A DNA stretch of 64,000 nt. It comes from Mobula hypostoma (Eukaryota). The notes below the pieces were generated by a model, which saw nothing but the letters and a program-made list of their open reading frames with translations, had not been told where the DNA came from and searched no databases. How positions within the stretch are numbered: position 1 is the stretch's first letter; each line of letters starts with the position of its first letter. The DNA lies in assembly GCF_963921235.1 (NCBI RefSeq), contig NC_086097.1:146632001-146696000 (forward strand). Direction: 5' to 3'. Made by a program: the position numbers and the translations under genes. Shown piece by piece: positions 3,993-54,726 of the stretch.

Positions 3993-4647
3993 CAGACATC
4001 CCACCTCTCCTGGAAGTTCCGGGAGTCTCCTGCATATGAATAGTGTCTCCTTGATGCCCGCAAATTATACACAATATCACGGAAATCAATTTTTTTGAGA
4101 GCAAGTGAGCGAGAGAGAGAGAGAGAGAGAGAGCATGAGAGCAAGCAACCGAGAGCGTGAGAGAGAAAGCGAGAGCGCGAGAGAGAGAGCGAGAGAATAA
4201 GCAAGTGAGAGTGCATGAGCGAGAAAGAGAGAGAGAGTACGCGAGAGAGAAAGCAAGCGAGCGCGCGAGCGACCACGAGAGAGAGAGCACGAGCACATGC
4301 CATGGCACAGTGTTCCAGAAAAAAAGAAAATATAAAACGTACGTCACCCCAGACTACACTAAAGTGTACCCCTGCCTAATAGGGGTCAAAAATAATGACA
4401 GTGCTGCTCGCTGCACTGTTTGCAACAGTGACTTTTCTATTGCCCATGGTGGGTTAAGACTGTAAAAGACATGTTGAGGTGAACTTAACAGGTGTCATTC
4501 GTTCATTAGCATAGCTAATGTTATTTAAACTAGCTGGCCAGCTGCTAAGGAGCTACTCTATTGCAGACATCCCACCTCTCCCGGGAGTCTCCCGCAAATT
4601 GATGGTGCTACCTCCTTGAAATCAGTTTTTGCAGGGTGGGATGTCTG
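3993..4647 (+). mobile_element. Non-autonomous hAT-like DNA transposon with 6-bp TSD and N-terminal zinc-finger remnant
   Basis: TIRs CAGACATCCCACC / GGTGGGATGTCTG; CTAAGC duplicated (3987-3992, 4648-4653); encodes ARCTVCNSDFSIAHGG-(frameshift)-DCKRHVE, a BED-like finger. Confidence 0.8.
4106..4290. repeat. Imperfect (GA)n/(GAGC)n purine-rich microsatellite inside the hAT element
   Basis: Direct reading of sequence. Confidence 0.9.
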
Positions 4648-5276
4648 CTAAGCACAACTCCAAGGCCATATTTAAGTTTGCCAATGACACCGCTCTCGCT
4701 GGATCAAAAGTGGTGACTAATCAGCATATAGGAGGGAGATTGAAAGTCTGACTGAGTGGTGCCACAGCAACAACCTCTCACTCAATGACAGGAAGAGGAA
4801 ACTGCGGTTCATGAGCCAGTCATCATCAGGGGATCAGAGGTGGAGAGGGGCAGCAACTTTAATTACACTGTGCGATCATTTTGGAAGATTTGTCATGGGT
4901 CCAGCTCGTAAATGCCATTATGAAGAAAGCAAGGCAGTGCCTCTAGAAGTTTTCGAATATTCGGCTTGTCATCTAAAACTTTGACAAATATCTACAGATG
5001 TGTGCTGGAGGGCATATTGATTGGTTGCTTCATGGCCTGGTATGGAAATACCAATGTCCTCAAATGGAAAACCCTACAAAAAGTCATGGATACTGCCCAG
5101 TCCATCATGGGTAAAGCCCTCCCCACCATTGAGCACATTAACATGGAGCACAGTCACAGGAAAGCAGCATCCATCATCAAGGACTCCACAATCTAGGCCA
5201 CGCTCTCTTCTCGCAGCTCCCATCAGAAAGGAACTGCAGGAGCCTCAGGACCCTGAGGTGTGAAATGTGAGGAGGA

Positions 5277-6051
5277 TGTTATGACCCCAGAACTAGGCAA
5301 GGACGTGACTTGGCTGGCAGGCAGGACGAGGCTGGAGACCGGAGACCAGAGACTTGAGGTGAGGCTGGAGACCAGAGACTTGAGGCGAGGCTTGGCTAGA
5401 GGCTTGGGGTCTTGAAGCTCCTCCTGGGCAGAGCGCGGATCTCCACCCGACGGAGGCAAGGGACAAGAAGAGACAGAACCCACGGCAGGGTAATGGCAAG
5501 ACAGCCTGGCTTACCCGACGGAGGCAAGGGACCGGAAGGGACAGCACCAACTGCAGGGTAACGGCAATACGGCCTGGCTTACCCGACGGAGGCAAGGGAC
5601 AGGAAGGGACAGAACCAACTGCAGGGTAATGGCAAGATGGCCTGACTTACGTGGCGGAGGCAAGGGACAGGAAGGGAGCTAGGTACAGGGTGGCTGCAAG
5701 ACAAGACTTCAGGCGAGATGAGGTGAGAGTTACCAGCAAGACAAGGCAAGGCTTCAGGCAATGCAAGGTGAGACAAGAACTTCAGGTGAGGCGAGATTAC
5801 CGGCAAGACAAGGCAAGGGTTCAGTCGAGGAAACAGAAGGCAGGGGAAGGGATACAAGGAGTAAGGACAAGAACAATCCAGCAGCCACGCCCTGGTCTCT
5901 GGAGGTATTTATGCAGCCAGCCCCAATGAGAATCAGCTGCCTCAATTAGTGCTCAACAGGAACAGAAACAGGGTAGACAGAAAAAACTGCAGCAAGTGTC
6001 AATAGACCGGACCGTGAACCAGAATGCGGACTTCATGGACTGGCCATGACA
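5277..6051 (-). mobile_element. LTR-like element (solo LTR) related to 14978-16253, with ~70-bp internal tandem repeats
   Basis: TG...CA termini (tgttatga...catgaca). Its reverse complement starts tgtcatggccagtccatgaagtccgcattc, matching 14978. acccgacggaggcaagggac recurs at ~5445, 5512 and 5581. No clean TSD. Confidence 0.7.
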
Positions 6052-6396
6052 ATTGGACACGCTAGAGGCAAGAAATATGTTTCCGATGTTGGGGGAATCC
6101 AGAACCAGAGGCTGCAGTTTAAGAATAAGGGGTAGACCATTTAGAACGGACTTGAGGAAAATTTTTCACACAGAGATTGTGGTTCTGTGGAATGCTCTGA
6201 TTCAGAAGGCAGTGGAGGCCAATTCTCTGGATTCTTTCAAGAAAGAGTTAGATAGAGCTCTTAATGATAACGGAGTCAAGGATATGTGGAGAAGGCAGGA
6301 AAAGGGTACTGATTATGGATGATCAGCCATGATCACAGTGAATAGCGGTGCCGGCTCGAAGGGCTGAATGGCCTACTCCTGCACCTCTTGTCTATT
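6052..6396 (+). mobile_element. CR1 LINE 3' end
   Basis: SRTRGCSLRIRGRPFRTDLRKIF..WNAL..AVEANSLDSFKKELD; 3' UTR gaagggctgaatggcctactcctgcacct. Confidence 0.85.
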
Positions 6397-7335
6397 GACC
6401 TACACGACCAGGTTCAAGAACAGCTATAATCCCTCAACCATCAATCTCTTGAACCAGAGGGTATTTCAATCACCCCGTCACTGAACTGTTCCATCAACAT
6501 ACGGACTCACAAGGACTCTTCATCTCATGTTCTCGATACTTATTACTTATTTATTATTATTTCTTTTTTTGCTTTTTGTATCTGTACAGTTAGTTGCCTT
6601 TTGCATATTGATTGTTTTTCCATCCTGCTGGGTTTGATCTTTCACTGATTCTATTGTATTTTTTAATATTTACTGTGAATGCCCACAAGAAGATGAATCT
6701 TAGGGTTGTATACAATGCCATATTTGTATTTTGATAATAACTTTTCTTTGAACTTGAATGTTGGACTATATTCCATTGAGCAGAAAAGCTAATGGTAGGT
6801 TGAAGAGGTGGTAACTGGTTTAAGGGGTTAAAAAAAGATGCAGCAGAAATATTAGTAAGGAGAGGAAATACATGTGAGGAAATGGGTTAAAAATTTAGAA
6901 CCGAGATGAGTATTAATGATCTGGAATGCACTGCCGATAAGATTGGAAGAGGAAAATTGATAGTAGTATTAAAAAGTAAAATGGAAGTCAAGGGGAACAT
7001 TTACAGTGCCATAGGAGAAGAGCTGAATGGTGGAACTAATTGAATAGGACTTTCAGAGAATCAGCATAAGCACAAATAGCCAAAAAGCGTGTACTGTATT
7101 TCTCCATGATTCAATGTAATGTATCGTTAATGCCACACTGGGCAGCTGAGTGCCATACTCAGAAAAAGTCACCACAATACTCCTGTGCTAGTGTCTAAAA
7201 CACTACCTTCACTTAGTGCAGTGCTGCCCAGGCAGTGACTCTGTATGTTAGAGTGGTGTGGTGAGGTGTGATGTTACAGTGGTGTAGAGTAATCTGGCGT
7301 GGCAACTTGCAAAAGTCAGTAGGATATTTATTTAA

Positions 7336-9330
7336 ACATAGCAAAAAATATAGACCAGTACAACACAGGACTAGGCCCTTCAGTCCGCAATGTTTAGCTG
7401 AGCTAATTAAATTAGTATTCTAGTGCCCAACTAATCTAATTCTTTTTGCCTGTGCAGGGTCCAATATCCTTCCATTTCTGCACATTCATGTGCCTATCTA
7501 AGAGCCCCTTGAATGCCTCTATCGCATTTGCCTCCACCATCATCCCAGACAGTGTATTCCAGCACCCACCACTGTGTGTAAAAATCTTGCCCTGAACATT
7601 TCCTTTGTACTTGCCCTTCTCACCTTAAATATATGCTCTCTAATACATGACTCTGGGAAAGAGAACATAGAATGCAATTTAGACCTCCCTCAGTCTCTAC
7701 TGCTCCTGAAAAACAACCCAAGTTTCACCAACATCTCCTCATCACATATGCCCTCTAAACAAGGCAGCATCCTGGTAAACCTTCTCAGCATCTCTCCATA
7801 GCCTTGACATCTTCCTATAATGTGGTGATCACAGCTGAATGTAATGCTCCTAATGTGGTTTAACTGGAGTTTATAAAGCTGTACCACAATTCTTGACTCT
7901 TTAACTTAATGTCTTGACAAGTAAAAGCAAACATGGCATATCACATCAAAGTTGCTGGAGAATGCAGCAGGCCATGGCACATGCCTTCTTTACCACCATA
8001 TCAACTTGTGCAGCCCCTTCCAGGGAGCAGTGGTCTTGGATCACAAGTTAATTTTATACATCAACACTGTTAAGAGTCTTGCCATTAACAGCATACTGCC
8101 CTCATAGTGCAGCATTTCATATTTGGCCAAGTTAATCTCCATCTGCCATTCCTTTGCCTTATTTGCAATTGATCTACGTCCTGAAGAAGGGTCTTGCCTC
8201 AAACTGTCAACTGTTTCTTCATGTCCATGGATGCTGCCTGACCTGCTCAGTTCCTCCAGCATTACCTATGTGTTGCTTTGGATCTGTAGAATTTTTTTTT
8301 GTGTTTGTGTATCTACATCCCCCTGTATTCTTTGCAAGTCTTCTTTGTTCTCCACAATACAGCCAACCTTCAAATCACCTGCAAACTTACTAACCGACCC
8401 ATCTATGTTTTCATTCATGTCATATATATATATATATATATATATCACAAACAGCAGAGGCTCCAATAAGTACACCACTAGCAAGAAATCTCATCTCTTG
8501 CCTCTTTTAGTAACCTGGGATATATCCAATAGGATCCTGGGGACTAATCAACCTTAATGTTCTTCAAGAGACTCAACATTACTTCCTTCTTTATCTCCAA
8601 ATCCCAAGCAAATTAGTACACTCCATCTGATCTCCCTATCATCTACATAGTTCTGCTTAGTAAATGTTGATACAATGTACTCATTCAGATCTCACTCGCG
8701 TTCTCTACCTCAAAACATATGTCTCCTTTATCTTTGAGTGGTCCTACCCACTCTTTAGTTATCCACCTGCTCTTGATGTATGTATAGAATGGCTTGGGAT
8801 TCTTTTTAATCTTACTTACCAAGGGTTTTTCATGGCCCTCCTCTCTTTCCTAATTCTTTTCCTGAGTTCTTCTCTGGCTTTTTTATAATCCTCAAGGGCT
8901 CTATTTGATTTCAGTTCCCTAAACCTTACATAAGTATTTTTTTTCTTCTTGACTCAATTCACTTCTCTCACCTTACCTTGCTATACTTGTCTATCCTTCT
9001 TACTGGAACATAGCTGTTCTGTATTCCCTGCAGTTGGTCTTTAAACACCATCCACATGTCAGATGTAGATTTGTTCATAATCAGCTATATCCAATTAACT
9101 CTCCCTAGTTCTTGCCTAATACTCTTGTAATTTGCTTGGCACCAATTTAATACACATCCATAATGTCCATACTTACCCTTATCTATAGCTACTGTATCTT
9201 AAAACTTAAGAAGTGGTGATTACTCTTTCCTGGCTGTTCTCCTACTGGAAGGTCAGTTACCTCTCCAGGCTCATAACCCAACACCAGGTCCAGTATGGCC
9301 CACCTCTTGTTGGGCTACCAACACAAGCTC
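7336..9330 (-). mobile_element. Degraded CR1 LINE (ORF2 fragments)
   Basis: Minus ORFs RRFTRMLPCLEGI.. (7690-7887), KEWQMEINLAKYEMLH (8041-8262) and SVSKFAGDLKVG (8266-8484); interrupted by a Penelope short copy and (AT)n. Confidence 0.75.
8176..8308 (+). mobile_element. Short Penelope terminal-repeat copy inserted in CR1; hammerhead core mutated (CTGAAGA...CAAA)
   Basis: gtcCTGAAGAagggtcttgcctCAAActgtcaactg...gatgctgcctgacctgctcagttcctccagcat; ATCTAC(G/A)TCC at both ends. Confidence 0.7.
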
Positions 9331-13117: not shown

Positions 13118-13704
13118 ACACGAGGAAATCTGCAGATGCTAGAAATTCAAGCAACACACACAAAAAATGCTGGCGAACGCAGCAGGCCAGGCAGCATCTA
13201 TAGGAAGAGATACAGTCAATGTTTCGGGCTGGGACCCTTCGTCAGGACTAACTGAAAGAAGGGATAGTAAGAGATTTGAAAGGGGGAGGGGTGGATCTAA
13301 GAGCTGGAGAAGAGAGAGGATCATGGGATGGGAAGCCTGGGGAGAAAGAGAAGGGGGGAGTGGAGACCAGAGGGTGGAGAGCAGGCAAGGAGTTATAGTG
13401 AGAGGGACAGAGGGAGAAAAATGAGAGAGATAAAAAAGGGGAAAAATATATAAAATAAATAAGGGATGGGGTGTGAAGGGGAGGAGGAGCATTAACAGAA
13501 GTTAGAGAAGTCAATATTCATGCCATCAGGTTGGAGGCTACCCAGACGGAATATAAGGTGTTCTTCCAACCTGAGTGTGACTTCATCTTGACAGTAGAGG
13601 AGGCCATGGATAGACATCAGAATTGGAATGGGACGTGGAATTAAAATGTGTGGCCACAGGGAGATCTTGCTTTCTCTGATAGACAGAGTGTAGGTGTTCA
13701 GCGA
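13118..13704 (-). mobile_element. 5'-truncated Penelope-like element: GIY-YIG C-terminus, 3' UTR and terminal repeat
   Basis: Collinear with 22249-22860; minus frame ends ...GSLQPDGMNIDFSNFC* (stop 13492-13494). Confidence 0.85.
13213..13250 (-). ncRNA. Hammerhead ribozyme motif, decayed at stem III and cleavage site
   Basis: Minus strand: tagtc CTGACGA agggtcccagccc GAAA catt gactg (ACGTC changed to ACATT by CpG-type transitions). Confidence 0.6.
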
Positions 13705-14977
13705 TTTTCCTTGTTAGATTTGCACAGAACAATGTCATTTCCTGTGTAACACTCATTTAGTTGAGAGAGTTTAATTACTGGTGGCTTCTGGGATCATTCG
13801 TCCTAATTTCTCGTCACAACTGGCACGGTGCATATTCAGCCCTTACAGGGTTTAGAGAAGCATAAAGTTAGTCTTCCAAACATCACAGTTTCTTATGGTG
13901 TGGGCATTATGAACAGATTTGCTGGGGACTCTTTCTGGAGAGGTGATATAATTTAACAAATAGCAGTACATGTTCCGTGTTTGTCCAAAAGACCAAACAG
14001 GGCATATGTTCTGAAGAAACCTATGCTCTGAACATTTGTCAGAAGAAAAATATCACTGGAGTTAACTTTTCATACTCAATCTGGGAATATAGTTAGTTCT
14101 GTAGCCAGAGATGAGGGTCAGGAACATGGTTAAGGGTGTAGCTGGAGCCAGGGGGCAGGAATCAGCTCGGGTTTGTTGTGAGGAGTGTGAGAAGTGAGGA
14201 TAGGGCAGTAGACAAAGCCCCTGCTCTTGAGCCATACATGGTGGTCTATCAGAAAGTGGGCATGTACGTGCCAGGTGGTACCTTTCTATGTGCCCATCTA
14301 TATTGATCCTTTAAGCCAACTTAGTCAGTTATTTAATGTAGAAGATGAAATGTTACACAATAACATTTCGTGTTTTAGCTCTGGCACTTACGAAGTCAAA
14401 GAAAAGTACAAACGTAAATTTCCCTCCACATTAATTAGGAAGAGAAGATAATTATTCCTGCCATTACAATCAAAGGTAGTATGCAAGGATTCAGAAAACA
14501 AGCTTTTACCGAATCGTTTTAAAGAAAGAAGAAATGCACTGTAATTAATTTCTGAGAAACATTTAATGGGAAATGGCAGAAAGACTTGCGTCACTGAGCA
14601 ATTCAATGCTGCAGATAATTTAGTGCTTAATTTTCTAGAAATGAGGGATAAACAAATGAAAAAGCTATAAACTAAATTCGAGCTAATGTGAACGGTTAAT
14701 CAGGAAATAGAAGAGCTCTACATTGTATTGTGACCAGACATATTATAAAGTTGATTTTAACTTCACTGCCTGTGTACCTACATAGTCAGGGATGAAGAGT
14801 AGGAAGAAGTGAGGAAGTGTGATATGAAAACAAAGCTAGTCATCTTCTGGCCAGGAACATTGCCTTTGTTTCTTTGATAGTGATAGGAAGCAGAGTCCTT
14901 CTTTAAGTGTGCAGATCTAGTCCCGGTACAATACAGTTCCTATGTCCCTATCTTTCCCTCCATTACAAGCAGGATAC

Positions 14978-19679: not shown

Positions 19680-20620
19680 GCCCATTCGTCCCTCCCCATT
19701 GATCTTCGTCCTGGCGCTTATCCCTTGCAAGCAGAAGAAGTGCAACATTTGCCCGTTCACTTCCTTCCTCACTACCATTCAGCACTTCATTCAGTCCTTC
19801 CACACGAGGCAGCACTTCTCCTATGGGTAACAAAAATAACAGAACACTGTAAGAACTCATTGGGTCAATCAGCATCTATGGAGGCAGAAGGTGTAAGTGA
19901 ACATTTTGGATCAAGATCCTGCAACTGGGCTGAGAAGGAAGCCAAAGAGTTTCCAGTATATAGCAATATGGGGGAGAGGGTGTGTTGGCATGGGATAGAG
20001 ACTGGTTGGTGATGGGTATAACCAAGTGAGGAGGGCATTGAGTAGGGCTGCTGTTGAAGAGCAGATGGGCCAAGTGCTTATTCCATCCACCCATCATCTC
20101 TGTCCACCCACTGACTGCCAGTTGTTTTCTCACTATTTTCTCTCACCTCTTTATTCTGCTGTCTTCCCTCTCTGCTCTTGGTTCTGATGCATCCCTCTGC
20201 CTGACCCATTAAATTCCTACAGCAGTTTTTTTTTGTTCCAAGTTATAGTATCTACAGTCTCCTGTGCCTCCATTTTACTACTTCATTCCAAAGTCTCTTT
20301 AACGTATGCCCACTTTGAAGATGATTTCCTTCTCTCTTTGACAGTTCCTGAGACTCTCTTACTGCTTTTCCTCTGTGGTTTCTATTACTTATCTGCTCTT
20401 CAGTCACATTCTTACCCCGTCTGTCCCATCATCTCCCTCCTCACTGGGTTGCACCTGGCAGTCCTTTCCTTGCCCCTCTCTCTGACCTTTTTACATTGGC
20501 TACTTTCCCAATACATTCTCAGTCCTGACACAGGGTCTTGGCCCAGATCGATGACCTTCCCTCTGCCTCCACTTGCACTGCAGGATGCTTTGAGTTCCTC
20601 CCATACTTTGTTTTTTCTCT
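19680..20620. mobile_element. Cluster of old Penelope-like fragments in both orientations
   Basis: 19720-19820 resembles YPCKxxKCxxCPFTS..TIQ..QSF..RQHF of the 22643 ORF; decayed terminal repeats at ~19830-19930, 20180-20260 and 20520-20610. Confidence 0.55.
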
Positions 20621-22310
20621 TTCAGTCATTAAATGGAATTTCAACCTACTATTTACTATTCTCTAAAGGGTAAATGCACTGCAAGCAACTTCATTGTACT
20701 GTATGCTTCTCATTGAAAAAAAATTTGGAAGGTGCTTTGCTGGGACACCAGCTAGTTCTCTGTTAAAGTCTAGCCAGAAACTCCTTTAGAAATTTTAAAC
20801 AAAAGATTAGACATCCATGAAAAGTGAAAGGAAATAAAGGATTGGAGCAATTAAAACTGTCAACACACCCATTGATTTGGTTTGCATTGTCTCCATTGTT
20901 TGCAGTACTGTGTTGTGTTTGTACACTCCCCCTAGAAAGACACCCACTGCAAATGATAACATGTATGAATATGGTTTTCTTTTATTTTGCTCCTTAGCTT
21001 TACTGAAGGAGCATCAATTTGACAACTGCTTGGAGTCGCAAAGTGACTAAGAATACAAAAATCTGTTTTTTGGGATAAAATTACAACTTGTCATACCTCA
21101 TCATCGAACTGAATGAAGGTTTGTAATTGTGGAGAATAGCTCCTGGTGGAAGAAAGATGGACAAGTGTAAGGTCGAGTGGAAAGTGAGGAAACATTAATC
21201 TCAAGCAAACCAATACGTTTTGAATGTATTCTTTCTGATGGCTTTCCCATCTGTATCCTCTCACATGCAATAGATCAATGGCACACAAAATGTGCTCAGA
21301 ACTCACTTGAATTGCAGCTCCTTTTAGTATACATTGAAGATGCGAATGGCTGATACATACGATAAATAAAAATAAAATAAATCATAAGATAGCAATTCAT
21401 TGACAGTAAGTTTAAGGGGAAAAGACTATAAATTACAGGTGGGTGGGAAGAGGATTGATTGCCAGTCTATAGCAATGCGAGGTTAGAGGGAGTATGAAAT
21501 AGCGAGGTTGCTAGGTGATAGATGGAACCTGATGAGGAGAAGATGATAGTCTGATAGAACCAGGTGGAGGAAGCGTGATAAGTGCAAATTGGAAGAAGAA
21601 CATCTCATCTCCTACTGGGGTAGCTACAAACCAAAGATATGAACACAGAATATTCCATTTTCATTTAACCTCCCCCCCCCCACCCCACTGTTCTCCTGCA
21701 CACTTTCACCCTTTAACCTAGTCTTTTTCTATCTTTGTTCACCTCTCCCTTCCCTCTCCCCTCACCTGCTTTTTTTTTTACTAAATCAATCTCACTGAAA
21801 AGAGACAAAATGTCTTTGAAGTTGGTGTGCTGTGGCCAGTGCCGGTAATAAGGCATCTGAGGCCCAGTCACCAACTTAGAGACACTTGCAGGAAGCTGTG
21901 AACTGGTAGTTTTCCAGAAACAATGGATCTAGTAGAAAGTCCACGGCTGCTAAACAGGCAAGGACTGAGTGCAGAGCGCAGAGGTGGATAGGGATAGAAG
22001 TGGAACTGTGATTGAGGGGAAATTTTAAAAACTTAAAAAGGAAGGGTAAAATGACAGAATAGTGTAGTAAAATGGATAATGGTAACCAAAGACTTTCAGG
22101 AATGAAAATGACTACAGAGCCTACTTTCAGCTAGGTTCAGAGCAGAGAAAATGATCCAGTAACAATATATGAACATAAAGAAATAGGAGCAAGAGTTGCA
22201 ATGTGGCCCTTTGAGCCTACCTCACTATTCAGGAAGATTATGGTTTTATCAACACACATAAAAGTTGCTGGTGAATGCAGCAGGCCAGGCAGCATCTCTA
22301 GGAAGAGGTG

Positions 22311-22348
22311 CAGTCGACGTTTCAGGCCGAGACCCTTCGTCAGGACTA
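22311..22348 (-). ncRNA. Minimal type-I hammerhead ribozyme, intact core
   Basis: Minus strand: UAGUC CUGACGA AGGGUCUCGGCCU GAAA CG UC/GACUG; stem I UAGUC:GACUG, stem II hairpin, loopless palindromic stem III ACGU, GUC triplet. Confidence 0.8.
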
Positions 22349-22642
22349 ACTGAAGGAAGAGTGAGTAAGGGATTTGAAAGTTGGAGGGGGAGGGGGAGAT
22401 TCAAAATGATAGGAGAAGACAGGAGGGGGAGGGATGGAGCCAAGAGCTGGACAGGTGATAGGCAAAAGGGGATACGAGAGGATCATGGGACAGGAGGTCC
22501 GGGAAGAAAGACAAGGGGGGGGGTGACCCAGAGGATGGGCAAGAGGTATATTCAGAGGAACAGAGGGAGAAAAAGGAGAGTGAGAGAAAGAATGTGTGTA
22601 TAAAAATAAGTAACAGATGGGGTACGAGGGGGAGGTGGGGCA

Positions 22643-23146
22643 TTAGCGGAAGTTAGAGAAGTCGATGTTCATGCCATCAGGTTGGAGGCTACCCAGACGG
22701 AATATAAGGTGTTGTTCCTCCAACCTGAGTGTGGCTTCATCTTTACAGTAGAGGAGGCCATGGAGAGACATGTCAGAATGGGAATGGGATGTGGAATTAA
22801 AATGTGTGGCCACTGGGAGATCCTGCTTTCTCTGGCGGACAGAGCATAGGTGTTCAGCAAAGCGGTCTCCCAGTCTGCGTCTGGTCTCGCCAATATATAA
22901 AAGGCCACATCGGGAGCACCGGACGCAGTATATCACCCCAGCCGACTCACAGGTGAAGTGTTGCCTCACCTGGAAGGACTGTTTGGGGCCCTGAATGGTT
23001 GGAAGGGAGGAAGTGTAAGGGCATGTGTAGCACTTGTTCCGCTTACACGGATAAGTGCCAGGAGGGAGATCAGTGGGGAGGGATGGGGGGGACGAATGGA
23101 CAAGGGAGTCGCGTAGGGAGCGATCCCTGCGGAAAGCAGAGAGACT
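22643..23146 (-). CDS. Penelope GIY-YIG endonuclease domain (C-terminal part of the PLE ORF; native start lost by truncation)
   Basis: PCKRNKCYTC linker; FTCESAGVIYCVRCSRCGLLYIGETRRRLGDRFAEH (VIY...YIG, catalytic R); RLEEQHLIFRLGSLQPDGMN (catalytic E and terminal N). Confidence 0.9.
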   Translation of the reverse strand, partial: SLSAFRRDRSLRDSLVHSSPPSLPTDLPPGTYPCKRNKCYTCPYTSSLPTIQGPKQSFQVRQHFTCESAGVIYCVRCSRCGLLYIGETRRRLGDRFAEHLCSVRQRKQDLPVATHFNSTSHSHSDMSLHGLLYCKDEATLRLEEQHLIFRLGSLQPDGMNIDFSNFR

Positions 23147-23319
23147 GGGGGACCTACCACCCCACTTAACTTTCATGCAACCTGCAAGTTAGCCCCAAAC
23201 ATTATCTTTGGAAGGAAAGGAACTGCTGATGCTTCGGGTTGAAACCATGCATTGAGACTAAGAGTGGAGAGGCAAGAAGGTAAGAGCACTTGTCAAAAAT
23301 GTCAAAGATGATTCGACAA

Positions 23320-30060: not shown

Positions 30061-30651
30061 TTATTCAGAGCAGTCTTTTTTTTGAGAATTAATTTAGTGC
30101 TTTTAAGAATTTTAGTTCCTGAGTACATTCAAGGCAGAAATTGATAGATTTTTAGCTCCATGGGATAAACTACAAGAACTTACATAGGCTCAGACTATGA
30201 CTATCTTTTTGAGGTATATGTAGAACAGTCTTCCTTAGGCCCCATTTCACAAATCTTTTACATCAACAACTGTATTTGTGATGTTTCCTGTACTCATCAA
30301 AACTAGCTTTAATTTTGACCTGAAATATTAGTTCTGTTTCTCTTTTCACAAATCCTGTCTGGACTGCTAAAAATGTCCAGCTTTCTCTGCTTTTGTTTCA
30401 GATCTCCAGCACCTACACTCAGGGCCGGATTAAGCTAGTGCGGAGCCTGTAGCGTATGTTATAAAGGGGCCCTAAATTTAAAAAAAAGCACATAAGTATT
30501 AAAACATAAATTATTTACTTGCATAGTAAAGTAATTCAATTTTTTCATTTGCTATACAGCCAGATAATACGACAAATGTCTGACACTTCAGTAACAATAT
30601 TACTTACATGTAGGTATCAATTTCAAATGTCAAAAGTAACAAAACTACAAT

Positions 30652-32283
30652 TTAAAAGTTACATTTTCTAGATTTAGCATGAGCAAATTTGTTGTTGATA
30701 CTGGAAATGTCTATTTCACACAGAACTTCATGTTCAATGCTCATTAGAGTGAGATTGTTCAATCTGTTTTGACCTATGGTGCTCCTTAGTTCATTTTTAA
30801 TCCTTTTCGGTTTTGAAAATGAGCGTTCTCCACGGCAGTTGGTAACCATGAGTGACAAATAGATGCGCAAGGCATTTTCTACATTTGGAAGACATGTCTC
30901 CAAAGAATTGTCAGTTATCAAACGCTACAACTGTAACGCTACAAGGTCTTGTTTGGCGCCAATATGAGAAGCAAGATCAGTTTTCAACAGTTCAGTAAAC
31001 TGCACAAATTCTTCATTAAGACTTTCTTCCAGATCTTCCGGATATGATTCATTAAGATTTGATGACCTCTTTACGATCTCTTCAGGTGTAAACGACTGTA
31101 ACTGATGAAGGAATCCAAAAACACCACTCACCTTTAAATAAGCTTTCTGCCTTATTGACAGGACAGAAAGCAAGCTGTCAATAATGGCAAGAAATGTTCG
31201 GCTTTTAAGCTTCTGCGATAGGTGTTTGAGATTCAGCAAGTGGATCAAGAGTGCTGGAACCACTGAAATCATCATACACGTGATTTTGCTTGTGTTTTCT
31301 TCAAGTTTGCTGTTGATAATCTTCAAACTTAGTCAGATCCTCAGCTTTTTGCTCAATGTCTGAAAACGTAGACCCCATAGCTTGAATATATCCATGCAAT
31401 GATTCATAGAGTGCACAAGCTGTGTTCAAGTCTTGGCCAGAAGATTGCAAAGAAGCACTGGTCATTTGAAAAGGCTGTAATACCTGATCCCACAATATGA
31501 CCATTATTCCTGTTTCCAACCTTATCATGGTTGAAAGTAGTCCATGAACCTGTTGTCGACACTCTGGGTTCCGATCATTTTTATTTGAAATATCATCCAA
31601 GACTTGTTTTATTGCAGAAAAGCTGTGTAAAAGTGCGTTTGTTGCATCTGCACGAGCTGACCACCTGGTATCTGATATTCTTTTCACAATGGGCAAATGA
31701 CCACCACCGTCAGATAATGCAGCAGAAAGGAGATCCCACCGATAAGTAGAAGCAGAAAAAAATGTGTACAGGCTTTCTACAAATTCAAAGAAAATTAATG
31801 CTTCTTGACAACATTCAACAGCACATTTTCCAACCAAATCTAGTGAATGTGCAAAACATGGAATGTAATCCGCAAACTCATTCAGCTCTTTAATTCCTGC
31901 TTGTAAACCACTATACTTGCCACTCATGTTGCTGGCATTGTCATAACTTTGATCACGGCAATCTTTTATATCAATGTCATTTTCCTTTAAAAAGTCAAGT
32001 AAACTTTGAGCGAGCTGTTCAGCTCTATGACCTTCCATATCCAAAAACTTCACAAATCTTTCAACTGGTCCAGACGGCAAAACATAGCACATAGTCAAAG
32101 GCAGCTGCTCCACATTAGATATATCTGGAATAGAATCCAATGAAACAGAATAATACTTGAATTTCTTCACTTCACCAATAATGTGATCCAATATGCTGGA
32201 TACAATCAGATTGATGAATTCCTCACATGTTGTTTTAGATAGGTATGATTTATGTCCCCTTCCTTGGTTTGCATGAGCATTTA
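30652..32283 (-). pseudogene. hAT transposase (DUF4371-type catalytic region plus C-terminal dimerisation domain), frameshifted, N-terminus missing
   Basis: YYSVSLDSIPDISNVEQL, DQSYDNASNMSGKYSGLQA, YIPCFAHSLDL, SDTRWSAR and ALRIYLSLMVTNCRGERSFSKPKRIKNELRSTIGQNRLNNL in three ORFs (31301-32283, 30925-31326, 30652-30921). Confidence 0.9.
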
Positions 32284-32419
32284 TACCACGACTCAGCAAG
32301 AAGCCAACACACGCCTGCACACACATACTGTACCATGCAGCATGCAGCTCCCCCAACATGAAAACAACAGCGTTGCCAGATTGTTGTTGTTGTGGTGTGG
32401 ATGAAATCACAGGGTGTTG

Positions 32420-32963
32420 TGTTAACGGTAGGTACAAGGCAGTTTCTTTATTCAACAAAACAAGGTTACAGCAGGCAGAGACCCCTGGCAGAACAGGTCC
32501 AACCGCCTTGTGATTGAGGCTCAATATTTATTTGCTAAACACAAAGGACAGTTAATAGTTACAAGTATAGACAATTCTTTGAAGTTTTCACATCTTTTGA
32601 TTAAATTCATTCTACCGGTGCCAGTATGCCTAAACTGGCATTCGTGGCCTTTAGGGATGCAAGTTAAAGTCATTTATTATTACATAGAAGTCATACATTA
32701 TTTGTTATGTTATGTGCTAATGTAGAGGACAATTCATATTCAAAAAGCATAGATACGGTGTCTTCACTACTACCTGTAAATTTAGCATTCTTGTCTCAGA
32801 GGCACCAGAGATGCATTGTTACAAATGAAACTGGGTTCACAGCTTTTAGGAAATGCATTGTTATGAACTCAATCCACAGTACTTTGTCAAAGAACAGAAG
32901 ACTGCTGGCTGAAGCCATTTATTTAAGTGTAAATGAATCGTCTGCCCAAAACTCACTCTAACG
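32420..32963 (-). mobile_element. Probable solo LTR nested in the hAT element
   Basis: TGTTAAC...TCTAAC(G) termini; flanks gttg / tttg; minus-strand AATAAA near 32446-32452. Confidence 0.5.
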
Positions 32964-41486: not shown

Positions 41487-41599
41487 ACTGTTCTGAATCA
41501 ATAAAATTACATGGGAAAGCCTTTGTTCTGAAGCAACTCTGGCATCTCTTCCTAACTCTTTCCCCACCACATCAGCAATTGTATTTGTGCTGCTTCCCG

Positions 41600-42200
41600 C
41601 ACTCATGCTGTAATCACCAATTTTATCACCTTTGCTGCTATTTTTCACGTTGCCCTAAAATTCACTTGGACCATTTCAGAGATACCTCTTGTTTTCTGGA
41701 TCTCTCTGTCTTCATCTTAGAAGACAAATCATCTACCAATATCTAATATAAACCCATGGACACCCATGGCTATTGTATCTTGACTACATCTCCTCCCACT
41801 CTGTCACGTGTAAGGACGCCATTCCTTTCTAGTTTCTGCACCCCCAGTCTACCTCGCTACTTTATTTATTTAGAGATACGGTACGGAATAGGCCCTCTCA
41901 GCCTTTAGTTCTTCCATCCTCATGGTCTACCTGCACTGCTCTTCTCTGTAACACTTTATTTTGTGCTTTGTTTTTGTTTTAACTTTTACTCCCTCAATGC
42001 ACCATTATAATGAATTAATCTGTATGAGTGCCATGTACTTTACCTCAGTACAGGTGACAATAATAAACTGATTAATCAATTTACCATTTGTTCTTAAAAT
42101 GAGGTTTTCTGTTCTGAAACTTCCTACTTCTTCAGGAAACATGGCTTCCCCCTACTATAGTTGATGGAGCGTGCACACATTTCTTCTATTTCTTAGATGT
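41600..42200 (+). mobile_element. Old Penelope RT C-terminal fragment interrupted by LINE 3' tails (~41845-42085)
   Basis: LKFTWTIS..CFLDLSVFILEDKSSTNI*YKPMDTHGY..LDYISSHSVTCKDAIPF. Confidence 0.65.
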
Positions 42201-42657: not shown

Positions 42658-43309
42658 GCGCGCCTCCATCTGCCCATTATCCGCCTCTCTTCATCTGAGT
42701 CCACCCTTCCCTCTCACTTCTACATACTGACTACCTCCCTTCTACACTCTCAGTGCAGATGCAGGATCTTCATCTGGTTCATTAGACATCTCCTTTGCCT
42801 CCATAGATGCTGCTTGACCTGCTGAATTCTTCCAGCAGTTTGGTTTTGCTCCAGATTTCAGCAACTGCAGTCTCTTACCTCTGTTAATAACACCTAGCAG
42901 GAGAACAAAATAAACAGCGAATGAACCCAGATCTCGAACCCCAAACCCCATTCTTCCTGGATTTCCATTATATTGGAGCATATTGGAGAAGTAGTGAATG
43001 AGCAGGGACTGAAAGAGGCAGAAAAGATACAGAACAAAAATAGACATTGTTACCATGAATTGATTTCAAATTAGCCTACAACCATGATAGGTAAACAGAG
43101 CTACAAACTGGTTAAAGCTGATGAATGCCTAAAATAGTCTTCCTTCTAGAGGAGTGATGGGAACCGCTCTGTGATCGTTCAGAAAAACTTTTTTGATGGG
43201 GGTAAGGGGGAAATTGTGTGTTTCCATAATGGAATGAGCTTGACAATGGAATTGATTCACCTCCTTGCATTTAGATGTTGACAACTGAGTGTTTACACTT
43301 TCATTTATA

Positions 43310-44911
43310 CAAACCCCATTTCCAGAAAAGTTGGGATATTTTCCAAAATGCAATAAAAACAAAAATCTGTGATATGTTAATTCACATGAACCTTTATTTA
43401 ACTGACAAAAGTACAAAGAAAAGATTTTCAATAGTTTTACTGACCAACTTAATCGTATTTTGTAAACATACACAAATTTAGAATTTGATGGCTGCAACAC
43501 ATTCAACAAAAGTTGGGACAGAAGCATGTTTACCATTGTGTTACATCACCTTTCCTTTTAATAACACTTTTTAATCATTTTGGAACTGAGGATACTAATT
43601 GTAGTAGGTTTGCAATGGGAAATTTTGTCCATTCTTGCTTGATATAAGACTTCAGCTGCTCAACAGTCCGTGGTCTCCATTGTCTGATTCTCCTCTTCAT
43701 GATGCACCATACATTTTCAATAGGGGATAGATCTGGACTGGCAGCAGGCCAGTCAAGCACATGCACTCTGTGTCTACAAAGCCACGCTGCTGTAGCCCGT
43801 GCAGAATGTGGTCTGGCATTGTCCTGCTGAAATAAGCATGGACGTCCCGGGAAGAGACGTCGCCTTGATGGCAACATATGTCTCTCTAAAGTCCTAATAT
43901 GCCTCAGAGTCAATGGTACCTTCACATACATGCAACTCACCCATGCCGTGGGCACTGATGCACCCCCATACCTTCACAGATGCTGGCTTTTGCACCTTTC
44001 GCTGATAACAATCTTGATGGTCATTTTCATCTTTGGCATGGAGAACTCGACGCCCGTGTTTTCTGAAAACTAGCTGAAATGTGGACTCACCTGACCACAG
44101 CACACGGTTCCACAGTCTTTCGGTCCATCTGAGATGAGCTCGGGCCCAGAGAACTCACCGGCATTTCTGCATAGAGTTGACGTATGGCTTCCTCCTTGCA
44201 TAATACAGTTTCAAGTTGCATTTCTGGATGCAGCGTCGGACCGTGTTGAGTGACAATGGTTTTCCAAAGTACTCCCGAGCCCAGGTGGCCATAATTGTCA
44301 CAGTAGCATGACGGTTTCTTAGGCAGTGCCGCCTGAGGGCTCGAAGATCACACGCATTCAACAGTGGTTTCCGACCTTGCCCTTTACGCACTGAGATGTC
44401 TCTGAATTCTCTGAATCTTTTCACAATATTATATACTGTAGATATTGAAAGACCTAAATTCTCTGCAATCTTGTGTTGAGAAATGTTCCTTTTGAACTGA
44501 CTAACAATTCTCTCACGAATTTTGGCACGAAGGGGTGAGCCACGACCCATGGTTGCCTGCAAAGACTGAGCCTTTGATGGACGCTACTTTTATATCCAGT
44601 CATGATACCTCACCTGCTACCAATTAGCCTGCTTAGTGTGGAGTCTTCCAAACCGGTGTTACTTGAATGTTCCGTGCACTTTTCAATCTTATTTTGACTT
44701 TGTCCCAACTTTTGTTGAGTGTGTTGCAGCCATCAAATTCTAAATTTGTGTATGTTTACAAAATACAATTAAGTTGGTCAGTAAAACTATTGAAAATCTT
44801 TTCTTTGTACTTTTGTCAGTTAAATAAAGGTTCACGTGAATTAACATATCACAGATTTTTGTTTTTATTGCATTTTGGAAAATATCCCAACTTTTCTGGA
44901 AATGGGGTTTG
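43310..44911 (-). mobile_element. Full-length Tc1 transposon (1.6 kb, ~210-bp IR/DR-type TIRs, TA TSD)
   Basis: ta|caaaccccatttccagaaaagttggga...tcccaacttttctggaaatggggtttg|ta; the TIR arms differ at only a few positions. Confidence 0.95.
43530..44550 (-). pseudogene. Tc1 DD34E transposase, disrupted
   Basis: Paired-type HTH and GQGRKP (44155-44562); WSGES (first D mutated), VKVWGCIS; FQQDNARPH-34 aa-SPDLSPIENVW; stops and frameshift. Confidence 0.9.
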
Positions 44912-47004
44912 TAATTTCATACTTTAAAATCAGTCCCCATTGTAGAAACATGAAGACATAATCTGGGTTGTCATTTCAAAGTGGCACTGAAGCAATTCCC
45001 TGAGAGACTATCAGAGGTGCCAACTTTCAGAAGAGATGCAAAAATCCCTGTCTGCTTTCTCAGGTGGATGTAAAATATGGTATTATTTCAAGAAGAGTAG
45101 CCAATCACTAGCCATGTTTATGCTTCAATACTGGAAGTAAAGAATCTATTCATTTATTTAATTTTATGTAATTATACCTCAAAAGGTATTCATTGATTAA
45201 GAAGCAACCTGAGCTGTCATGTAAAAAATTATTTGTCTTTTTCACTTTGCAATGCTAAAATATTTCTTCCTTATTGGAAGCACCATTTTCTAAATAAAGT
45301 ATTAAGCTGAGGACCTGATGACTTGAAAATATTCCTTTCTCAACTACCAGCCCTAAAATTGATTAGTAGCCTTTTATCATATTACATTTTCTTGAGTTCT
45401 TGATGATGGCAAATGAACTACTTCATTTACTAGCAAGAGAGCAGTAACAATTTTCGGCTCTTCTCAACATTGAGGCATACCCATGATGAGAAGTTTTCTT
45501 ATCTTTTCTTTATGAGTGTCAGCAAAGGAAGGGATATGTGTGAAATCAAATTACTTAAAATAGCAACTTCTACAGCTCATAATAATTCAGTGTACCATCA
45601 TTCAGAATGATAGATGTTGTTAACCTAAATATTCTGTGCTTTCTTTATTCATAAGCATGAATATTTATGTGCATGATACTCTTTTGCACTTATATACTAC
45701 AGCAGTGCCACTTATTACTGGGGAGTTCAGTGTATCTTAAAAGCAGATATATTAATTTGAATGAATGACTAAGCTACACAAAGCTCCCAAGTGATATTGC
45801 AAATCAGTCTGACAATAACTAACTAATTCTCTTTTTTTCATCAGCTATTGCAAGAGTGGAATCAAATAAATCCTTATAGTATTTTTATCAGCTATTTACA
45901 TACGACTGAGATAATAAAACCGGAACTGTTGCAAATTCTTTCAAACTCTCCGTCTTTAAGGATGTTGAGAGATTCTGAGGAATTCTGATTGCACTTGAAG
46001 ACACAGGAGGTGCCTTTCATATTAATCTTGATACTTCTGCTTCTTTTGGAACAAAATGCTACCTTCTACATAATAAATATTTATGAATTGAATAATGTAT
46101 ATGAAAGCAATTAACATTAACAAAATGTCAGTTATGAATCTTGGTTGTTCTAGCAATTGCTTGATTGTAATTACTGACAAGGAATATGATTTTTAAGTAA
46201 TATACATAGGAATAGGTTCTGTCAACAAGGCTGGTGTCATCATTGAAATATTTAAATTGATATTGAGCATGTTTGGAGGTACTGAGTTTCAGCTGGGATA
46301 TGTGCTAGAACTAATGAGGCCACAACCAGTTTACTAGTCATGAAACTTGATTCAAAGTACATATCATGAAACTTCATTCGAAGTGCATATGAAGTTTGGA
46401 TTAAGTTCAACTATGGTGAATCAAGAATTAGAGTGTGTATATTTAGGGTGAGAGGGGAGAAACTTAATAGGAATTCAAGCAGGAACTTGTGTACCCAGCT
46501 CCATATATGTAAAATACCTTCCAGATAATAGTCAGGCAGGTATGTTAAACATAATTAAGATATTTAGGTATATGAACAGGAAAGGATAAGATGGATATGG
46601 GTCAAATGCAGGCAAATGGGTTTAATTTAGATGGTTGTCTTATTTGGCATGAAGCAGCTGGGCCACAAAGCCTTTTTCTGTGCTGTGTAACTACGTTCTT
46701 CTGTCATCCTACCATTCTGCTGATGTCCTCGGAGAGAAGGAAGTTGATTACTGACGCAAGAATGGCAAAGAAGGTTCCTTTAGAAGTTGGTACCAAAGTG
46801 AAAACAGAAGATTCATTTTCAAATCGAAAGTCAAGAAAAATAATGTTATAAGAAGAATGTCCCATGGATGCCTCATTCTCTCACCAATTAATAAAATGAT
46901 CAGTAGATGTTGGAAGTCTGAAATTAAACAAATAATGCTGGAAGCAATCAGCAGGTTAGGCAAAATCCACCTGCAGTGAGAGGAACTGAGTCAATGTCTC
47001 AAAT

Positions 47005-49810: not shown

Positions 49811-49942
49811 CTTTATATCATGCAAGTCTTTTCACTATTGATGGCCAGTATGATCTGATATGGTCTCTTGGGACCTGTGATGGCTTTGTCAAAGTTGTAC
49901 CTAAATTGCCTGTTATAGGTCAGGATTACCCAACTTAAATGT

Positions 49943-50067
49943 CCCTTACTCACTCTTCCTTCAGTTAGTCCTGACGAAGGGTCTCGGCCTGAAACGTCGA
50001 CTGCGCTTCTTCCTATAGATGCTGCTTGGCCTGCTGCGTTCACCAGCAACTTTGATGTGTGTTGCTT
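49943..50067 (+). mobile_element. Young short Penelope terminal-repeat insertion
   Basis: Near-identical reverse complement of 22249-22370; CTTAAATG(T/A)CCC at both ends. Confidence 0.85.
49966..50003 (+). ncRNA. Minimal type-I hammerhead ribozyme, intact core (identical to 22311-22348)
   Basis: tagtc CTGACGA agggtctcggcct GAAA cg TC gactg; predicted cleavage 3' of C49998. Confidence 0.8.
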
Positions 50068-50319
50068 AAATGACCCCGTTCTGGATTTCAGTAAGGAGTG
50101 GATCTCTCAGTTCATTTCTGCTTCCTGACTGGGGAGAAGATGAAAGAAAATTGTAGCATCCTTTTACTTGAAAACTACATTTGAAATTTGCATTGTTCTA
50201 CATCTTAGTTTGACTTTCCTTTGGCACAGTTAAATAATTCAATTACTTCAGAAATATTTTTTAATATGAGAATATTGACAGACATAGAAGAGGAAATCTC
50301 ATTAGAAACTAGGGTTCAA

Positions 50320-50790
50320 GTACTTCTTCCACATGAAGTGGTGATTCATTTGCACTTCTAGTGCGTTCAGTGCTCATATAACCATATAACAATTACAGCA
50401 CAGAAACAGGCCATCTCGGCCCTTCTAGTCTGTGCTGAAATCTACGTTGGAGAAATTAAATTTGGCTACTACCTTGCAGAACATCTCTTAAATTTACCAT
50501 GGGGATCTTGAATTTCCAGTTGCCTGCCACTTTAATCCTTCTCTCATTCTGGCTTCTTTGCATTTGGCCACTTACATGTTTCTAACAAAGCCCAAGAAAA
50601 TCTTCAGGAAGAGCACCTACTTTTTAATCTATGTATGTTGCAGCCCTCAGGCCTCAATATTGGATTCAACAATGTCAGATAACCATCTTAACATGTTCTG
50701 ATGAAAGGTCACCAACCTATACCATTAACTCGGTTTTTCTCTCTCCATAGACGTTCTTGACATTCTGAATATTTCCATCTCAGATTTCCA
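50320..50790 (+). mobile_element. Old Penelope GIY-YIG fragment with a CR1-tail insertion (~50380-50437) and a decayed hammerhead (~50698)
   Basis: ..gtgcgttcagtgctc|..ctacgttggagaa (YVGE)..gaagagcacctacttttt..ttcaacaatgtcagataa; CTGATGAaagg..cct. Confidence 0.55.
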
Positions 50791-52866: not shown

Positions 52867-53457
52867 GGGGTAACTGAAAATTAAGTGTCTCAGTTATTTT
52901 ATGAAGCTTGATAGATATTCAAATAAGAACTAATGGAAATGCTAAAATTGTACAGAATGAGCCTTAAATAAATACCAGATTTGTTCATTTTAAGATTTGG
53001 CTTGAAGCTTTACTTCAAAAAGCCAAACTAACAGTGGAATTCATCATTCAGCATTCAGTGGAAATATTGCTGTGCAAAGTGAGTCAACACCTCCCACTTC
53101 ATTGCTCCAAACTGGTTCTTCAAGTGGGGAATATCTTACCCATTCAAGAAAGAACCTAATTGTAGTTGAGGAATGATCTGCTGATGTTCATCAAATGATA
53201 AAACTTTGCAGAATTACTCCACTGAAAGAATATTATTTCATAAAACTTGATCTTCTGCTTAAGTATCACAATTGTAGCAGGCCAACTAAAGCTGCAAAAG
53301 CAAATAAGGCAAGTAATGTAATGTAATCTATTAGACTGCTCATTTCCACATGGAATATTTTATGGCACCAGGTGTATTCACATTCTGTGTAGATTGAACC
53401 AAAGGGATTGATTCTACTTTTATGTTTCCCACTTGAAAACTGATATGATATAAATCA

Positions 53458-53604
53458 CAAACAAGAGAAAGTCTGCAGATACTGGACATCCAAATAACAC
53501 ACACAAGACTATGAAGGGTCTCTGCCCAAAACTCTGACTCTTTAATCTTTTCCATTGATGCTGCCTGGCCTGCTGGGTTCCTCCAGCATTTTGTGTGTGT
53601 TGCT
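53458..53604. mobile_element. Second fold-back Penelope-derived short element (left arm partly deleted)
   Basis: caaacaagag..aacacacacaag|tgaagggtctctgcccaaaac..ccagcattttgtgtgtgttgct; ATATAAATCA at 53448-53457 and 53608-53617. Confidence 0.75.
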
Positions 53605-54726
53605 ATAATATAAATCAATTCTGAATTAGTCAGTGAGACACCATGATATTATTTACTCAGCAATTTGTTATAGTATGGAAGATTATGCCTGAAACAATGG
53701 TGGAAGTAAAATTAATAGTTACCTTCTAAGGGAAATTGAATGTATACAGTATTTGACAAGTTCCAGTTTTATAGGGCAATGGGAAAGGGTGATGGAATGG
53801 ATAGCACCTTTGAAGATCAAAATGCATATACAATCAATTGAATGGCTTCCACTTTGTGCAAGGTTCTATGATTCCATGAATGATTGAAACTCGTAGTGGG
53901 ATTGTTCATACGGAACAGACTCATTAGAGTGCCACTATGCATGTTTGTCTTTTCAAGTGCAGAACAATTTAGTTGAAACTATCATCTCAATCACTGACTT
54001 GAGCTTTCTGATTACAAACAGAAATCTTCTGCAACAGAGCTGTATTGCTAATTGAAAGAGTCTGTGCTAATCAGAATCAGCACAATGACTGCATAACCAG
54101 CATGCAGACAAGTTGAATCAAACCTAATCATGTCCTAGATGAAAAGTAGTATTAGAAAGTAATTACCTGAATGCTGATAAATTGTCTCTCAAGATGGAAA
54201 ATAATGTTAACTTTGAAATTATAGTGCAATATTCTAAATGATTTTTACCCAAGTCTAATGCTTTACAATGCAGGTCAATAAATAAGGAAGTTCCAACTCT
54301 CATTGTGAATTAAAACTATAGAATTGCCTTATCTTGTAGTTTTAATTATCATAAGACTGCATCACTACCTTAAAACAAACTTTCTCACAGTTTTACTACT
54401 ATTCTGTGATCAATGGTTCACTGGTGCAATTTTTCACTCTCCTGTTTTTGGACTATGTCTAAATTCATATTCCATATGTAACGCATTTGTACACATCCAC
54501 CAGAGACATTCCTATAGAAGTATACACAAAAATGATGTTGGGGCTAGCTGTTTACTATGGTAAGTTGCAATCCAGAGAACTCCTTGAATATATGAAAATG
54601 ATCTCTTGGAATTCATATAGTCATACCAAGTGGCAGGGAGGGAAAGGAGTACAAGCTGACGGGTGATAGGTGAGCCCGTGTGTGGGGAAAGTGGGTGCAT
54701 GGGTTGGGGAGGGAGGAATGAAGTCA

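Follow-up and report, generated by a model that had tools for sequence, protein, structure and literature searches.

A minimal type-I hammerhead motif in a probably young, 5'-truncated Penelope-like element copy, likely of a ray

Background

The pLTRs of metazoan Penelope-like elements (PLEs) carry minimal hammerheads, or min-HHRs (Cervera & de la Pena 2014, PMC4209133). As monomers these PLE motifs were reported not to cleave in vitro and as dimers to cleave at a low level, the Schistosoma motif being inactive in the first form and weakly active in the second (PMC4209133), and a review credits Lunse et al. with the same outcome, no monomer and low dimer cleavage (PMC6765202). The Poseidon element from Anolis carolinensis (PAc) has been assayed biochemically, and its ribozyme was found to cut only with protein (Frangieh et al. 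2024, PMC11167929). According to the same report, HHR mutants of this anole PLE insert normally in vitro, so that cleavage is dispensable there, RNA-seq reads neither start nor stop at the cut, and reverse transcription starts internally, producing the tail. Naiad PLEs are described as thriving without canonical HHRs (PMC8557442). Among cartilaginous fishes, PLEs are reported to have expanded in whale shark introns (10.1101/443036), and non-LTR retrozymes derived from PLEs are described in one chondrichthyan (10.64898/2026.07.22.740005), in a report whose supplements may list the present family. Our literature search, at the level of listings and abstract openings, turned up no publication that names a PLE hammerhead from an elasmobranch.

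Results and discussion

The hammerhead motif

The window, by which we mean the whole 64-kb stretch of DNA that was analysed, contains a min-HHR on its minus strand; its parts, the host copy and the other copies with which it was compared are listed in Table 1. All 12 of the 12 core bases are present (C3-U4-G5-A6-N7-G8-A9, G12-A13-A14-A15.1 and U16.1-H17, in published hammerhead numbering), and the word "intact", used in the earlier note on this DNA, holds for the core. The cut predicted from our reading of the strand falls after GUC, at 22316|22315, where that note had placed it, and the stem II hairpin and the loopless palindromic stem III that it described are both there. Stem II includes two G.U wobbles, one of them G10.1.U11.1 in place of G-C. 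The five base pairs claimed for stem I do exist as a pairing, but they consist of four Watson-Crick pairs and a terminal U.G, and the inner three alone are kept in relatives.

Table 1. Features of the flagged copy and of related copies in the window
Feature	Position	Strand	Basis
Minimal type-I hammerhead motif	22311..22348	-	sequence, descriptor, identical 38-mer in sister copy, core kept in relatives
Stem I 5' strand, UAGUC	22348-22344	-	sequence
CUGACGA	22343-22337	-	sequence
Extra A between 9 and 10.1	22336	-	sequence
Stem II and loop, GGGU-CUCG-GCCU (4-bp stem, CUCG loop)	22335-22324	-	sequence
GAAA	22323-22320	-	sequence
CG	22319-22318	-	sequence
UC	22317-22316	-	sequence
Stem I 3' strand, GACUG	22315-22311	-	sequence
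Loopless stem III, ACGU, palindromic at 15.2-16.2	22320-22317	-	sequence
Tail 3' of ribozyme, with copy end at 22250	22250..22310	-	BLAST to other copies, junction
Pyrimidine-rich 3' UTR, stop to ribozyme	22349..22642	-	sequence; homologous to the copy at 13152-13702
End of PLE ORF, 5'-truncated: CX4CXXC linker and GIY-YIG endonuclease, without RT	22643..23145	-	Pfam, tblastn, linker
Possible old hammerhead-tail remnant (weak), core destroyed, just 5' of the truncation point	23195..23262	-	nhmmer E=0.014, sequence
Older copy: frameshifted endonuclease end, UTR, hammerhead, full tail	13118..13717	-	same family
Sister copy: UTR end, identical hammerhead, tail	49930..50070	+	115/121 nt identical to flagged copy

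The published PLE min-HHRs (PMC4209133) are built in the same way: they are of type I, with CUGANGA and one extra base, a short stem I, a 4-bp stem II and GAAA-CG-UC forming a loopless palindromic stem III, and they occur as a single 3' motif on 5'-truncated copies. The closest one listed is that of Acropora digitifera Neptune, whose stem and loop sequences differ from those of the window copy; the alignment in that paper holds no cartilaginous fish, and its supplement, in the searchable portion, no shark or skate term. A G.U at 10.1-11.1 is found in its cichlid, Xenopus 1 and coelacanth 1 motifs as well, and because the wobble is thus present in published min-HHRs we rejected it as a special feature; the literature covered on the G10.1-C11.1 pair contained no data on a G.U substitution.

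A min-HHR descriptor matched three loci in the 64-kb window (22343-, 13245-, 49971+), its chance level being a match in 4 of 200 block-wise dinucleotide shuffles (mean 0.02). The search with Rfam covariance models, proposed earlier as a check, did not recover the motif: no hammerhead family reached its gathering score or E<=10 there, and four weak matches to Rfam models (PrrB_RsmZ at E=0.009, far under gathering, and three at E 4-8) were dismissed as chance. Fold stability did not single out the motif either (z -1.24 to +0.11).

The host copy

The motif lies in sense orientation 294 nt downstream of the stop (22645-22643) of a GIY-YIG frame, in line with the distance of about 295 nt given before. 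The frame measures 181 codons from stop to stop, with about 165 codons uninterrupted; it scores 22.7 bits against Pfam GIY-YIG PF01541, barely above the cut-off of 22.6, and by tblastn is 95% identical to the PLE protein P0002 and 67% to P0008. Its best longer protein relatives come from a Mobula PLE (95% aa), Hypanus (76-83%) and sharks (58-66%), and in related PLE proteins the RT stands upstream, with a YIDD motif (in P0008 RVT_1 gives E=9e-5, below cut-off). By these protein matches the window likely comes from a ray. Identification as a PLE minimal type-I hammerhead is sustained by the descriptor, the GIY-YIG ORF, these ray and shark proteins and the conservation of the core. The linker CKRNKCYTC fits the CX2-5CXXC pattern between RT and EN that is described as common to Neptune and Nematis (PMC8557442); the host element is likely an EN+ PLE and probably of the Neptune clade, a linker of this form also fitting Nematis. 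In PAc, as in this family, a tail follows the PLE hammerhead, the 3' ends vary and the targets are AT-rich. PAc differs in belonging to the Poseidon clade, with a ribozyme that overlaps the ORF start, whereas the CX4CXXC of the window copy points to Neptune or Nematis.

The copy that carries the flagged ribozyme is solo, is ~0.9 kb long, lacks the RT and is likely dead. Homology stops on the 5' side at about 23137-23152, and no tandem or inverted pLTR is found at the 5' end of this locus, although 5' pLTR partners are present in other copies of the family and in related metagenome loci. The earlier label of a 3' terminal repeat is thus right in that the ribozyme sits in the 3' part of the element, while its status as a repeat is carried over from the family, because the locus itself has no 5' repeat. 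The end at 22250 adjoins AT-rich DNA, loose ends gather there and other copies have further tail; no target-site duplication was seen. The observed/expected CpG ratio of the copy is 0.54, against 0.31 for the whole window, and near-private differences number about 4 in ~450 nt (from 40 of 84 variant rows). These two values, together with the roughly 165 open codons and the 95% aa identity to the Mobula PLE, give reasonable support to the view that, compared with its neighbours, the copy is young; such youth does not imply present activity. "Young" can be retained, but the further description of the element as recently active is not borne out. Being solo and 5'-truncated, with neither RT nor 5' repeat, the copy cannot itself be the processed transcript.

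Other copies in the window

A hammerhead-tail profile trained on ten window copies gave 23 matches at E<=1 in the 64 kb, of which 17 had E<1e-3, and the ten training copies are among these 17. Many window copies consist of ribozyme and tail only, most show CpG-type decay, and their 5' ends are staggered (about 23145, 13717, 49930 and 41485), as for truncation. The sister copy holds an identical 38-mer at 49966-50003, while the hammerhead of the older copy has C11.1 but a stem III decayed to ACAU and C17 changed to U. In one DNA run 137,736 contigs fell on 501 nt of the element, and the summed depth, which is not a copy number, was 2.2-2.8e7 over ribozyme and tail versus 215-273 on unique flank; we take this contrast to suggest no more than that the family is very large. 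Extrapolated from its local density, the family would have far more copies than the 4,000-9,000 given for coelacanth and frog (PMC4209133).

So many ribozyme-tail copies, with the summed depth at its highest over just that part and PLE-derived non-LTR retrozymes reported from one chondrichthyan, could suggest a non-autonomous, retrozyme- or SINE-like unit moving on its own. We regard this as highly improbable, since the flagged copy still has 294 nt of UTR and about 500 nt of ORF attached, a self-BLAST of the window showed no tandem array of ribozyme units among the matches listed, and the staggered 5' ends are those of truncation. The described non-LTR retrozymes (10.64898/2026.07.22.740005) share with the window family the type I hammerhead, the PLE origin and many monomeric leftovers, but are tandem non-coding units, each with a ribozyme. 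As a retrozyme of that kind the flagged copy itself, solo and ORF-linked, is refuted.

It is also very unlikely that this locus or similar stubs are active ribozymes on the host side, which pair with other copies in cis or in trans and so cut host transcripts. The 17 tails at E<1e-3, the three loci passing the full descriptor, the 38-mer shared by two loci and the presence of the family in runs guessed to be RNA would all suit such a role; however, the closest same-strand descriptor match to the flagged motif is 9.1 kb off and has a broken palindrome, the adjacent remnant has no core, and CpG-type decay affects most copies.

Several other repeats were noted in the window. At 1080-1310 two ribozyme-tail stubs form a head-to-head fold-back, joined inside the core region with a palindrome centre near 1216, the usual arrangement of inverted 5'-truncated PLEs, and at 53452-53608 a direct ribozyme-tail stub, beginning inside the core, has an inverted piece of tail immediately on its 5' side. 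About 20 nt separate a much older PLE endonuclease remnant (50312-50770, plus strand) from the decayed ribozyme-tail that comes after it, and further RT or linker remnants lie at 41508-41839, 30178-30300 and 19723-19821. A 408-codon frame at 31301-32527 on the minus strand matches DUF4371 weakly (20 bits, below cut-off) and may be a remnant of a hAT-type transposase. Finally, a 213-nt inverted repeat pair (43308-43520 and 44701-44913; 98.6% identical, about 1.2 kb between) likely marks the two ends of a young DNA element as its terminal inverted repeats.

Conservation in close copies and distant relatives

Among close copies, variation touched 2 of 38 ribozyme sites and 25 of 294 UTR sites (40 of 84 variant rows), so that a lower variability of the ribozyme is not evident. 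In the same rows the two variable ribozyme positions are 11.1, with C in 21-29% of depth, and N7, with U in 8-16%; the G.U at 10.1-11.1 of the flagged copy accounts for the other 71-79%, in a depth biased towards the query. Loose ends gather at the ribozyme edges, 22347 and 22311, where other subfamilies diverge.

The distant relatives are metagenome loci, the best 80 of 468 related ones, mostly 40-57% identical to a shark query. With an endonuclease end and at least 300 nt downstream, 40 loci could be scanned with the strict descriptor, which matched 14 of them in sense orientation, none of the 40 in antisense and none of 26 upstream controls. A similarity search recovered 66 motif copies in 59 of the 80 loci. 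Every one of the 46 sense copies follows the ORF match, at a distance of 94-911 nt, and the spacer from stop to motif is about 100 nt in most related loci versus about 300 nt in the window copy. Nineteen of the 20 minus-strand motifs precede the ORF match or stand at its start, 11 of them within 300 nt, and we interpret these motifs (L014, L052, L056, L006, L046 and others) as inverted 5' partners. A search of viral contigs gave no relatives by protein or by motif pattern.

When 9 motifs that were short, shifted or below 52/80 identity had been dropped, the window copy could be compared with 57 of the 66. Identity was 0.94 over the 12 core bases and 0.91 over the CG of stem III. The flanks, at 0.31-0.32, and stem I, at 0.32, were far less alike, while stem II stood at 0.61 and loop II at 0.0. 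The contrast between core and flanks that the earlier note proposed to look for among young copies is therefore weak at that range and clear across distant relatives. In 15 of the 57, U4 is replaced by C (CCGACGA, as in L051:3570-3607 on the plus strand), apparently a variant-core subfamily. A comparison by eye shows the 34-nt motif of the relatives to agree with the HHR listed for Acropora digitifera Neptune in PMC4209133 (Fig. S3/Table S1), which lends indirect support to a Neptune placement.

Covariation was examined in an alignment of 14 rows, 6 from the window and 8 from the loci, which amount essentially to two lineages. Two inner pairs of stem I swap between C-G and U-A, and stem II is 98% paired; the outer two pairs of stem I are unpaired in 10 and 8 of the 14 rows, the inner 3 being kept. 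The covariation score for these two lineages was 0.391 versus 0.285, a value reached by 0 of 500 shuffles, while two of five covariation measures failed to beat the shuffles (362/500 and 500/500). Covariation thus argues for stems I and II, in two lineages only.

Two further observations concern other sequences in this comparison. The read-through C-terminus of P0009, a PLE protein of the zebra shark, resembles a translated hammerhead region, and this amino-acid similarity suggests that the motif is kept in sharks. On the minus strand of L011, about 916 from the end, a type I hammerhead of another form occurs, its stem I 6 bp long and its stem III carrying a 6-nt palindromic insert.

Predicted folding and the question of cleavage

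In its predicted minimum fold (-11.0 kcal/mol) the lone 38-mer pairs the core GACG with CGUC across the cut, and the hammerhead-like monomer, at -7.0 kcal/mol, has a probability of 0.0006. The active dimer reaches -11.5 kcal/mol versus -30.3 for the best two-strand fold, and when the native flanks are added stems I and II fall to about 0 probability; the relative L022 shows the same predicted misfold. The energy models, which ignore tertiary contacts, predict that the RNA of a lone copy folds into an inactive form, and because the active dimer is far from the minimum and the flanks dissolve both stems, even dimer cleavage would need help. The claim that the element is ribozyme-processed consequently finds no support here, given the predicted misfolding of the monomer, the lack of an intact partner nearby and the dispensability of cleavage for the anole PLE in vitro.

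Such folds, which disfavour the active form, raise the question of whether the motif persists for a role other than catalysis, as a protein-binding or folding signal or as a pause for reverse transcription, with cleavage in vivo incidental or absent. The normal insertion of anole HHR mutants, the absence of RNA-seq ends at the anole cut and the success of Naiad PLEs (PMC11167929, PMC8557442) would agree with this, as would contigs of two presumed RNA runs (X17 record 9 and X9 record 17), which cross the cut site, although they derive from other copies and contigs cannot show RNA ends. However, the positions conserved from the ray to its distant relatives are exactly the catalytic core and the palindrome, the stems change with compensation, and among the window copies the variation falls on N7 (C, A or U), the core position that is free. 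We therefore judge a purely non-catalytic role to be a minority possibility, though one of some weight.

Our preferred reading, to which we give a probability of roughly 0.85, is that the motif is a standard min-HHR of an EN+ PLE, likely of the Neptune clade, that it is likely an inert passenger at this locus, and that full-length tandems are likely cut only by an exchange of ACGU strands or by protein refolding. Under this reading, reverse transcription would start within the tail at a point some 60-100 nt beyond the 3' side of the ribozyme and would usually abort early, and most insertions would for that reason be short stubs of ribozyme and tail. In a tandem transcript of the master element, stem III (A15.1-C-G-U16.1) would pair between two motifs, each of which could then cut after GUC; alternatively, the protein of the element may open the structure by refolding the RNA. 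In a lone copy GACG would close onto CGUC, giving the inactive form. Selection would accordingly act on the motif in the master element, whose tandem repeats or protein permit cutting, and the motif would be inert here, a view that we base on the misfold predictions, the lack of an intact neighbour and the PLE literature.

A bolder extension of this reading seems to us improbable. It holds that rays carry ~100,000 hammerheads with intact cores, far above the published counts of other vertebrates, held in check by a conserved monomer lock, predicted for this family and its distant relatives alike, in which the core pairs with its own cleavage site until dimerisation or protein opens it, that neighbouring intronic copies occasionally cut host pre-mRNA, and that selection shapes their orientation.

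Conclusions

This kind of min-HHR has already been published (Cervera & de la Pena 2014), and the window family adds a member to the class, an elasmobranch and probably Neptune-clade example. The family stands out only by its abundance, 17 tails in 64 kb, with ten of these tails serving as the training set of the profile. Whether PLE hammerheads cut in vivo is not a matter that one truncated copy can decide; a family that is young and extremely abundant would bring statistical power to that question.
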